From Eledone cirrhosa (taxonomy: Eukaryota), in assembly GCA_964016885.1 (NCBI GenBank), contig OZ024740.1:22506001-22570000 (forward strand): 64,000 nt of DNA, read 5' to 3'. Of this stretch, positions 6,750 through 45,334 are shown one piece after another (the first letter of the stretch is position 1; every line of letters begins with the position of its first letter). A model generated the notes under the pieces. That model had not been told where the DNA came from. It searched no databases and worked only from the letters and a program-made list of their open reading frames with translations. The translations under genes and the position numbers were made by a program.

Positions 6750-6962
6750 ACGTCGTCGTCGTCGTCGTCGTCGTCTTCTTCTTCTTCTTCTTCTTCTTCT
6801 TCTTCTTCTTCTTCTTCTTCTTCTTCTTCTTCTTTCTATCTCTCTCTCTCTCACTCTCTCTCTCTCTCTCTCTCTCTCTCTCTCTCTCTCTCTCTCTCTC
6901 TCTCTCTCTCTCTCTCTCTCTCTCTCTCTCTCTCTCTCTCTCTATCTATCTATCTATCTATC
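6750..6962. repeat. compound microsatellite (GTC)n(TTC)n(TC)n(TATC)n
   Basis: Directly visible. Confidence 0.97.
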
Positions 6963-7169
6963 TTGATAGAGTAAGACACGCTTCACATCGGCTCCGCTAT
7001 TCCATCGGGATTTACCCTTACTATTGTAAGTACCGGATAAATTTTTCAGTGCAACACATTTGGAACACTAACCCCTGTTATTTAGGGAAACATTTTTGCA
7101 TTTACCCCCTTTTTAGGGGGTAAAATAAATAAATATCTATTTTTGCCGAAAAATTTCTTTCTTGGCAGC

Positions 7170-9018
7170 ATGGCGGAAAAGATGGCAGACATGTCTGCCA
7201 TTAGCTCTGCCACGCCCCCCAAGTCTGAAGAACAAAAAATAATTACAACAAAATTAGACAATGAAACAAACAAAGAAAATGAAAAAACAAATGTTAAGGA
7301 AAATGAGCAAACGGAAAACAAACAAACAGAAAATAATACAAATAACAACAGGGCAACTTTCGCCCAGAAAACAAAACAATCCATTACATACACACCAATT
7401 GACCTAACTGCCGCCAGAGAAAAACTGGCCGAAGCAAAGTAACACATTGTTTTGGGGGAGAACGGAATGTTTTCCATTAACCCCCCCCCCCCCCCCCCCC
7501 CAGAATTCAAGAAAGAAAGAACAGAGAACACAGTTCTCTTCAGAACTATACTGAACCAGACAAGAAAGCCAGCACAGCCCAGCCAAATGGAAATAGAGTT
7601 GGTCCTAAAAGACTATATGAAGAATATTCTCTTCATACGAAAGGACCGACTCTATGGCAGCATTTCGGTCTTAACAAAAGACAAGGAAACGGCGGAGAAG
7701 CTTTCCCTAAGCCCACTCTCATCGATAACATACAGCTTCTATCCCTCCTACATGGGTAGAAGAACACAGAGAGTAAAAGTAAAAACAATGCTGCCCACAA
7801 TGGACTTCTGGTGGGCTATTGCTGGCTTCATAGACATGGGCGAAGACACAATGCTGTCAATGGGGAAGGCAACTGGAGATGCGTTCCTGGGAATGGGCCT
7901 CGACATACTAGTCCAAATGAGGCCCGAAAGAATAGCACAAATCCCGGATCGCATCTGGCTGGATGACCTTACCCCAATAGACATAATTGTAGAGGGGAGA
8001 AGACCAGCATGCTATTTATGCATGGAAAGGGGACACGTTAAGGCTAACTTCCCGAAACGTATCCCCCAAAAAGGACTATTGCCCACACCCACCACAAACA
8101 GTACACCAACACCACCTACCTCCAAAAATACACTAATACCACACACAGCAAACAAAATACAGACACCACCAACCACAAACACAACACAAACATCACCACC
8201 ACCAGCACCAAACACAAGCACGACACAAAAATCACCACCACCAACCACAACACAAACATCACCATCACCAACCACAAGCACGACACAAACATTACCACCA
8301 CCACCACCACCACAAAACCCATTCCAAACAAATAATAAAAAAAACAGTAACAAATCTACCCCTCCCGCAAAAAAAAACAACCACACAACACGTCCCTCCC
8401 ACCTAGCGCTGAAGAGTTTCCCCCAACTTCTGAAGAAGAAGGAGGAGAAGCCTTCAGACAAGTTAAAAGAAAAAAAAGAAAACACACGCCCAGCACACCA
8501 CAAATAACCCACACACAAACACCAACTCCAATCAAAAACACCCCACCCTCAACAAACAAAAATAAATCTGCGCCTCCCCTCTCCGAAACATTGACAGCAT
8601 CACAAAAAAAGACGTTGCAATACACATATATAAATAAAGAAAACAAAAAACTGGTTAAATTAATAAACAATAACCCTATGGTGCAGACCGAAGGGCCAAA
8701 CTTTATCTCAACAGAGAACTTCACCCATTTAAAAATGATAAAGGTCCCTCTGGACCTTTATCGTTCATTAAAAGAACAATTTAGACGGGACGTGAGCCCC
8801 CCCCCCCCTGTTTAAAACCGTTAAATCGCGTCCTCTTGAAAGATTTCCCCATAACCGGCCCTCTCCCTGACACAACTCCAAATACCCCAACCCCACCACA
8901 CACGGATACCCCCACACCACCACAAAACATCCCTCCACCCAACACACCTGATGCCATGGAAATTACACAACCCGGAGAGGTAGGTGCTTTTCTTTCTTCA
9001 CTTTCAACACCAAAATAG
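7170..9018 (+). pseudogene. Tx1 ORF1 (gag-like, degenerate CCHC knuckle CYLCMERGHVKANF, Pro/Thr-rich linker)
   Basis: ORF pieces 7143-7442, 7452-8507, 8591-8815 and 8836-9018 broken by stops/frameshifts; homologous to 30961-32460. Confidence 0.8.
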
Positions 9019-9023
9019 ATCAA

Positions 9024-44203: not shown

Positions 44204-44242
44204 TGAACGAGTAGTTTCATGCTTTCGCAATCTTCAGGCTCA
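44204..44242 (-). ncRNA. slightly degenerate minimal hammerhead
   Basis: TGAGC-CTGAAGA-tTGC-GAAA-GCAt-GAAA-CTAC-TC-GTTCA. Confidence 0.6.
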
Positions 44243-44340
44243 TATTCAGTGGTGACAGTCAAGTTTGCAATTATATATATAATAGATCTATCTATCTATC
44301 TATCTATCTATCTATCTATCTATCTATCTATCTATCTATC

Positions 44341-44706
44341 AAATACCACTTAGGAAGAAGAATCAGAATGGAGAGAGAGGTGCTGTACCCCAGCAAGTTT
44401 TATGGCAGGTGGGTGAAAGTGGCGAGAATGGCCCGAGTGAATGGGTCTTCTCTCTATATCAGCCTGTAGGTTGAGGAAAAAGAGGAAGAGCGGAAAGGGG
44501 TACAAAGTCTTCGTACTCCTGGAGATGAGGGCTGCACATTTTTTCGGGGGTATGTGTTACCCACATGTAATGCTCCCCCTATTGAGGAAAATCGATTAAT
44601 TTTTAAATTGCATTTGTGATAGTATTTTACACGTTTTTATTGTATGTAAACTTCACCCTTTGTATTTGTCCCCTTCTTTTGTGCCCCTGTGGCTAATAGA
44701 GAAACA
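44341..44706 (+). mobile_element. Tx1 5'-truncated solo copy G
   Basis: Matches the 3' end of copy B; preceded by (TATC)n at 44287-44340, followed by (TC)n/(TATC)n. Confidence 0.92.
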
Positions 44707-45334
44707 TCTCTCTCTCTCTCTCTCTCTCTCGCTCTCTCTCTCTCTCTCTCTCTCTTTCTCTCTCTCTTTCTCTCTATTATACATCTATCTATCTATCTAT
44801 ATATATATATATCTATACATATATATATAGGTGTGCAAAGTAAGTGCATAAAACTCCATTTAGTCATAAACTGCCGTTAATACACCCATGTGAGTATGAA
44901 GGAGAAACATAAAAGTCACGCCATTCTTCTTCAATAAAATCGAAACATATTCAGACACGTATACACACATATAATAACACACACCAATACACACAAACAT
45001 ACATACATACACAGATACACACACACATACACACACACATATACATATGGATATATATATATATATATGCATATGTATATCTATATGTATACGTATATCT
45101 ATATGTATACGTATATATATATATATATATATGCATATAAATGACTTTACACTCACATTACACTTGTCACACGTGAGACAGGATTTGCACAGCTGTGCAC
45201 AACTTCTGGTGTAATACATTACTGAAGAACACAACTATTGCAAGTGTCATTAAATACAGACTATAAATATTCACAAGCACTTACAAGCACACCCATACAC
45301 ACATACACACACACGCGCACTCATATATATAGAT

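Follow-up and report, generated by a model that had tools for sequence, protein, structure and literature searches.

Several long interspersed nuclear element (LINE) families of the Tx1 clade (reviewed in PMC3747384) insert into microsatellites, and families with TC, TTC, TTCC and TTTC targets have been described (PMC4494074). A review lists ACAY, AC, TC, TTC and TAA as microsatellite targets, and calls the mechanism of such targeting not well understood (PMC3812793). More generally, the reading of the target by the apurinic/apyrimidinic endonuclease (APE) of LINEs is only partly understood, and a hairpin loop from Tx1L grafted onto L1 changed the specificity but did not transfer it (PMC1950540). 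As for the joining of the 5' end, R2 RNAs that keep upstream target sequence give uniform junctions, which has been attributed to annealing, while the junctions are variable where there is only microhomology (PMC3774820). Here we describe LINEs found in a stretch of 64,000 nucleotides from Eledone cirrhosa (assembly GCA_964016885.1, contig OZ024740.1, positions 22,506,001 to 22,570,000), called the window below, where seven pieces of such elements lie at or near TATC-type repeats.

These elements are, with a probability of about 0.8, L1/Tx1-type LINEs that insert with a fixed orientation at TATC repeats, duplicating 11-21 bases of the target, and whose APE endonuclease likely nicks the GATA strand, 5'-ATA^GATAGAT-3', to prime reverse transcription. 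The insertion preference itself is real, strand-specific and found genome-wide.

Strand-specific insertion at TATC/GATA repeats

The genome is 3.0 Gb, and exact-pattern counts, each with zero control matches, gave 7,158 3' ends of the B/D type, 722 of the A type (five of 30 sampled were another subfamily) and 568 starts of subfamily A; the subfamilies are presented below. Since the TATC in front of full-length copies is probably in part carried by the RNA of the element, their 5' junctions are not independent evidence of targeting, and the truncated copies are treated first. The sample consists of the first 90 B/D-type ends in chromosome order, taken without selection for length. Twelve ran past the fetched DNA, and the 78 that were resolved comprise 18 set aside as internal deletions or rearrangements, seven full-length copies, 22 copies truncated behind another element and 31 truncated solo copies. 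(TATC)2 is found at most 30 nt upstream of 21 of the 31 solo copies, as compared to 0.27% of 98,138 element-free windows (p ~6e-47), and of 19 of the 22 tandem ones. (GATA)2 precedes none of the 31 or the 22. When it comes to other repeats, (TA)4 and (TC)4 are each found upstream of two solo copies (the background for (TA)4 being 10.4%) and (CA)4 upstream of none. The original prediction had proposed a strand-specific tetranucleotide target from the window alone, and had reasoned that random flanks of truncated solo copies would reduce TATC to a tail encoded by the element; the flanks are not random, and both they and the duplications described below bear the proposal out. A Tx1 family has been regarded as target-specific when the target makes up more than 20% of the flanks (PMC4494074), and here the proportion is 68% for the solo truncated copies and 93% for the A starts.

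Target site duplications (TSDs) of 11-21 bp that include non-repeat bases are displayed by 14 of 43 informative truncated copies, drawn from the sample plus 21 truncated top matches, versus 38 of 1,806 shuffled pairings (2.1%). Two of the 14 (L155 and L223) are borderline, and one is the window copy at 12742. As the TSDs contain non-repeat bases, TATC is target DNA and not merely a tail. The consensus of the site is (T)ATCTATC^TAT(C/A)T on the top strand, with C at -1 and A at -3 in 14 of 14, A at -7 in 13 of 14 and TAT at +1 to +3 in 14 of 14. Three TSD-bearing copies (L159, L187 and L233) have no TATC in the 3' flank, yet this flank matches their TSD, and a TATC tail is thus not obligate. 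The truncated 5' junctions take all four phases of the repeat (12, 12, 7 and 6). At the other end, 6,779 of the 7,158 B/D-type 3' ends continue from AATAAAGAAA via two bases into TAT (NN-TAT), and the poly(A) tail that marks L1-type 3' ends was not found.

The full-length copies have another kind of junction. TATCTATCT precedes 531 of the 568 A starts, directly followed by TGATAG, and 71 of 73 sampled A starts have it followed by TGAT. The junctions of full-length copies are in one phase per subfamily, and a non-repeat TSD is absent from all 26 that are informative (Fisher p 0.0006 against the truncated ones). The 5' junction is accordingly uniform in full-length and variable in truncated copies, as in R2. 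Four of 25 B starts end in TACC, two end in TATA and 11 others have a TC interruption before the last TATC, and these variants recur at unlinked loci, which is easiest explained if transcription starts within the upstream repeat and the RNA takes the repeat with it. From this analysis it seems fairly probable that full-length copies use an RNA-borne repeat leader, and that the end of their cDNA anneals to the target in the way proposed for R2. Folding of the 5' end was no better than that of shuffled sequences (z-scores -1.15 to 0.45).

The A and C elements start with TTGATAG, the complement of the target repeat (window 6955-6970 and 30500-30530), so a leader could fold back on itself. An intron in the 5' untranslated region (UTR), suggested by GT..AG motifs, was rejected, being retained in all 63 full-length A and B rows.

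The copies in the window, their proteins and their relatives

The features of the window are as follows.

6943..6963, + strand: (TATC)5-T, closing a (TC)n tract, as target and/or repeat leader for the full-length copy of subfamily A, the junction being that of 531/568 A starts
6964..12681, + strand: full-length subfamily A LINE of ~5.7 kb, ending in AATAAATAGAAATT with no poly(A)
7170..9018, + strand: open reading frame 1 (ORF1) of the subfamily A copy, frameshifted here; CCHC zinc knuckle and Pro/Thr-rich linkers
9015..12450, + strand: ORF2 of the subfamily A copy, with APE endonuclease, reverse transcriptase (RT) and C-terminal zinc-binding domain; frameshifts and a stop here
12682..12746, + strand: (TATC)15 tract, the last 17 bases of which (12730-12746) are the upstream TSD copy of the next insertion
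12743..13374, + strand: 5'-truncated subfamily B copy; AACC at the 5' edge is common to element and target (microhomology)
13375..13425, + strand: downstream TSD copy (13375-13391), then a mixed TATC/CATC tract
13426..13523, + strand: 3' UTR fragment of subfamily E, the third subfamily met
13530..13608, + strand: subfamily D 3' UTR fragment, preceded by CCATC only
13617..16818, + strand: subfamily D copy, 5'-truncated within the endonuclease region, then TATCTATCT
30493..30515, + strand: (TCTG)5 tract upstream of the copy of subfamily C
30516..34728, + strand: subfamily C copy with intact 5' end (TTGATAG start as in A), the 3' part lost at another repeat
44286..44340, + strand: (ATCT)14 tract before the solo copy
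44341..44707, + strand: 5'-truncated solo copy of subfamily B with 92% identity to that at 12743, then ATCT and (TC)34

The seven pieces, predicted to lie on one strand, were all confirmed on the + strand at these places, and a self-BLAST of the window revealed no eighth copy and none in reverse orientation. They are not, as had been thought, copies of one element; they represent five subfamilies, A-E, with pairwise identities of 72-95%. The TSD of the copy at 12742 is the 17 bp sequence TATCTATCTATCCAACC, found at 12730-12746 and 13375-13391, and the true 5' edge lies inside it. The original prediction had each 5' junction following a TATC-type repeat, which is correct for most, but not for the piece at 13530 with only CCATC upstream. 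Likewise, most preserved 3' ends do go straight into ATCT/TATC without poly(A) as claimed, but the claim is weak for the piece at 13426, which continues into TCCATCTAT, and for the copy at 44341, which continues into CATCT and then (TC)34. The junctions before 13530, after 13523 and after 44705 are in other words weaker than first stated. The + strand of the window holds six perfect (TATC)3+ tracts and no (GATA)3+ tract; five of the six touch a copy and the sixth lies ~80 bp past one. As the window also contains 98 (TA)6+ and 31 (CA/TG)6+ tracts, the predicted preference for TATC over the abundant (TA)n and (CA)n holds.

Subfamily A is young: across the 3' 2.6 kb, 37 fetched copies are 95.6-100% identical to a natural copy that is one of the 37. 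It is also mostly full-length, with 568 exact 5' against 722 exact 3' matches, and 35 of the 37 fetched top A matches retain the 5' end. The LINE family has likely been active recently. At least four further full-length start types of the clade exist, and all 10 of their sites have (TATC)2 upstream. Contigs from a second organism span, with diverged letters, the 5' junction at which an empty allele was looked for (see below), and the family is therefore not confined to this assembly. Internal deletions are common (about 17 of the 78 resolved junctions), often with a few shared bases (L151-L240, L093, L096, L110 and L117), and L215 has an inverted internal piece. Another sequence, GGGTAAAATT..GAGATCC, recurs after TATC tracts at three of five sites (L104, L191 and L371); the four tested have no ORF1 match, and it is possibly a non-autonomous partner.

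In natural copies of subfamily A, ORF2 is open for 1168 codons (L094) and ORF1 for 625 codons (L102). ORF2 scores above the cut-off for both Exo_endo_phos (39.4 bits) and RVT_1 (83.1 bits), and thus has the N-terminal APE and the RT of the L1/Tx1 group. At its C-terminus zf-RVT scores just under the cut-off of 27.5 bits (E 1e-4 and 9e-6, 23.3 and 26.8 bits), with a visible CPRC..E T..H.L..C motif. Among solved structures, human L1 ORF2 is the nearest (E 3e-48 across endonuclease and RT, versus 4e-23 for R2), and the catalytic residues of the endonuclease line up with those of L1 ORF2. A separate ORF1 with a CCHC zinc knuckle is a feature of the Tx1 clade, and L102 has such a knuckle, CYLCTERGHIKANC, which Pfam zf-CCHC matches with E 0.005, below the curated cut-off.

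The family likely belongs to the Tx1 clade, judged by this architecture and by unnamed relatives flanked by 5S and U2 sequences. A 92-row FastTree places it, with modest support, among unnamed relatives including L283, with a piece of 5S rRNA at its flank, and L247, with a U2 5' piece. The distant metagenome relatives L247, L241, L248, L258 and L283 lie beside U2, U1 or 5S rRNA, which is what Keno- or Mutsu-like elements would be expected to show. A search of a protein-cluster atlas matched only unnamed APE-RT-zf-RVT clusters, the nearest outside relatives (P0002-P0010) are 38-69% identical, and 80 more distant metagenome loci, with matches mostly 21-36% identical, contained no TATC tract.

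ORF2 of subfamily A starts with ATA where the sister families have ATG (CCAAAATAGATC versus CCAACATGGC; window 9010-9030). This is the case for 44 of 44 A-type rows among the 22 commonest contexts, and the TAG that overlaps the start is the stop codon of ORF1. Going by its reading frames, the youngest family could translate ORF2 only by non-AUG initiation, by reinitiation or through a frameshift. Translation of ORF2 independent of AUG occurs in L1.

Sister families at (ATT)n were found in 20 stretches fetched around endonuclease matches, 18 of which encode sister ORF2s, mostly 55-75% identical by segment. Their terminal motif is that of the TATC families, but is followed by (ATT)n in 17 of the 18 loci; (TATC)2 is found within 8 kb in none of them, and (TAT)3+ lies just upstream of a family start in 11. 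Both groups insert before TAT, and a pattern that includes CATTA counts 9,991 ATT-type ends genome-wide. In an endonuclease tree of 47 rows, five of them unlabelled or other and some possibly repeating one genomic copy, a TATC clade of 35 rows contains 33 TATC and no ATT rows, and an ATT clade of 12 rows contains nine ATT and no TATC rows. In an RT tree of 15 rows, with P0011 and P0085 left out, the TATC elements form one clade (99/98) inside paraphyletic ATT families, the approximately unbiased p value (p-AU) for ATT monophyly being 0.004. With P0003-P0008 as the root of this tree, targeting of TATC is the derived state. Between the two groups there are differences in the endonuclease loop that aligns with the hairpin loop studied in L1 (PMC1950540), which reads WANRSGQSRSY against WTNRIGSSRSY, and in a second stretch, LCQPGG against VSRPGM/PSRPGS.

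The ATT-associated families (L431-L449 and L451-L480) frequently lie in the ATT tail that ends a short repeat. In the window a frequent SINE-like (short interspersed nuclear element-like) repeat is found at 34728-35764, 50992, 57850, 59911 and 63249. The end of this repeat, TGGCCTTGTGCC..AGAAACAATTATT, is similar to the 3' end found in ATT-type LINEs, which, by this resemblance, may mobilise it; one copy adjoins the broken end of the subfamily C element. The window further contains two other sets of retroelement ORFs, at 36851-39079 (+) and 25777-27558 (-), the latter with an RVT_1 match and a C-terminal motif that is Penelope-like by eye. A minisatellite with 202 copies of a 26 bp unit (91% matches) occupies 1-5261.

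A proposed mechanism and its rivals

The domain layout, the top-strand consensus (T)ATCTATC^TAT, the strand polarity, the TSDs of truncated copies and the tandem arrays joined by TATC are all seen in the DNA. The location at TATC in one orientation together with the duplication of the site indicates that the enzyme likely cuts the TATC/GATA repeat. In target-primed reverse transcription it would nick the opposite strand, at 5'-ATA^GATAGAT-3'. The 3' end of the RNA (..AAUAAAGAAA-NN-UAU) could then pair with the nicked end via their common TAT, which would replace the poly(A), and the second strand would be cut 11-21 bases downstream. Truncated cDNAs would join through fortuitous microhomology, with the TSD retained in full. 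In full-length RNAs the start would lie within the upstream repeat; the cDNA made from them would have (GATA)n at its end, by which it would anneal to the target, and whatever part of the overhang is not repeat would be lost. Such annealing would give a single junction phase and many full-length copies. As every insertion is left flanked by TATC on either side, available for the next one, arrays of mixed subfamilies would grow. The TATC preference likely arose once, through changes in the endonuclease of an (ATT)n-associated ancestor. A wider picture can be drawn only tentatively, and its chances as a whole are short of even: an uncatalogued radiation of APE-type LINEs that went from (ATT)n to (TATC)n by few endonuclease changes, that joins its 5' ends by an R2-like leader and hence is mostly full-length, that occupies and lengthens most GATA microsatellites of the host, and whose youngest subfamily lacks the ORF2 AUG.

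Some of the data weigh against the reading given here. The 18 of 78 resolved junctions left out as internal deletions or rearrangements include one tandem copy (L210), 10 of the 31 solo truncated copies have no (TATC)2 upstream, and some sites hold a single TATCT (L146). The solo copies without TATC and the one-unit sites argue for a strong preference for a short motif, which microsatellites supply in bulk. No diagnostic TSD is found in 29 of the 43 informative truncated copies, which age and later insertions and deletions could explain. Contigs from four public runs at one 5' junction showed no empty allele, but none crossed the unique flank, and they are uninformative on the state before insertion. 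When it comes to the leader, the full-length copies scored are mostly of subfamily A, with few B rows, and the truncated ones of B/D, and subfamily therefore partly confounds the contrast in TSDs. No Rfam ribozyme or structured RNA was found in the window at gathering score, and the matches at 6900-7300 are at chance level. Targeting of ATT is weaker: out of a sample of 30, in which 11 ran past the locus and seven were internal deletions, (TAT)3 lies upstream of five of the 12 truncated copies that were resolved (background 0.19%), the search pattern itself demanded CATTA at the 3' end, and the ATT group was named only once a first tree had been inspected.

It could be argued that TATC is only a tail and leader made by the element, and that insertion is random, the association stemming from clustering in tails and from growth by slippage. 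Indeed, of 30 sampled D-started (TATC)4 tracts, 24 adjoin an element of the clade, although several of these belong to a single cluster and 3' junctions are favoured by the pattern; many TATC tracts may thus owe their length to elements, and the leaders do look heritable. However, the solo truncated copies carry no leader and 21 of 31 still follow TATC, solo copies with TSDs show TATC in the pre-insertion DNA upstream of the duplication, and some 3' ends have no TATC tail. This explanation is largely refuted, and its remaining probability is very small. An RNA-guided choice, where AT-rich DNA is nicked loosely and TATC is selected at priming because only ends that pair with a UAUC read-through tail can prime, would fit the NN-TAT after 6,779 of 7,158 3' ends without poly(A), the UAUC that transcripts of arrays would carry, and the co-variation of tail and target between the TATC and ATT families. 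It is nevertheless improbable, as the most conserved bases (-1 C 14/14, -3 A 14/14 and -7 A 13/14) lie upstream of the nick, where they cannot pair with the RNA tail at priming. Moreover, +4 is A instead of C in five of the 14 TSD sites, and the target is tracked more cleanly by the endonuclease tree than by the RT tree.

The last alternative concerns the full-length copies only. If the second strand were cut four or eight bases from the nick, at another TATC^T, short in-phase TSDs would result and no RNA leader would be needed, the TC variants before B starts then being local slippage. Every full-length A junction fits such a short in-phase TSD, and L112 has TATCTATAT on both sides, a possible TSD of 9 bp. 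We regard this as unlikely, though by far the most credible of the alternatives, since it requires different second-strand cuts for full-length and truncated products and leaves unexplained why the same TACC or TC-interrupted leader is found at unlinked B loci that lack it in their 3' flanks.

Comparison with known systems

The two sister groups are found in one genome, have open natural ORFs that are 55-75% identical (natural open copies being L094 for TATC, and L449 and L436 for ATT) and use repeat units that differ by one base. They are thus a natural pair for studies of target switching, in which swaps of domains and loops are directly testable. If true, the joining of the 5' end of an APE element by a leader would extend the R2 mechanism to another class, with a bearing on tools for inserting full-length genes. 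In the sample seen, most of the GATA tracts that serve as markers in this animal are retrotransposon junctions.

Octopus vulgaris has a genome of similar size with 80 L1-Tx1 families, 13 of them recently active, and the families described here may be among them; the parts of that annotation covered give no target preference, and its supplement has no match for target, GATA or TATC (PMC13282606). Kibi, Koshi and the crocodilian Tx1 families are likewise APE-RT LINEs of the L1/Tx1 group found in microsatellites, including TTCC and TTTC (PMC4494074, PMC3812793). Their targets, as described there, are pure pyrimidine tracts, whereas the target is TATC/GATA here and ATT/TAA in the sister families. 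(TC)n is not the target here as it is in the Kibi/Koshi type, (TC)4 being found at only two of 31 solo junctions and the TSD consensus being TATC.

Human LINE-1 is the most similar of the solved structures. The lengths of L1 TSDs and the microhomology at its truncated 5' ends resemble those found here. Unlike human LINE-1, the family has no poly(A) tail and has a CCHC knuckle in ORF1, and most A copies are full-length. The nick motif of human LINE-1 is TTTT^AA (PMC1950540), as compared to the putative ATA^GATA here.

R2 has a restriction-like nuclease, a 28S ribosomal DNA target and a ribozyme similar to that of hepatitis delta virus, whereas the present elements have an APE enzyme, a microsatellite target and no Rfam ribozyme match. 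Waldo and Mino belong to the R1 clade and Dong to the R4 clade. These non-LTR (non-long terminal repeat) elements are also microsatellite-specific (ACAY and AC for Waldo and Mino, TAA for Dong); none is listed with GATA in the review, and the TAA of Dong is also the target of the ATT sister families (PMC3812793). No LINE that targets GATA was reported in the literature searched on targets, hosts and endonucleases, a scope that lies outside Repbase and Dfam. As far as this literature goes, TATC/GATA is a new target within a known kind of element.

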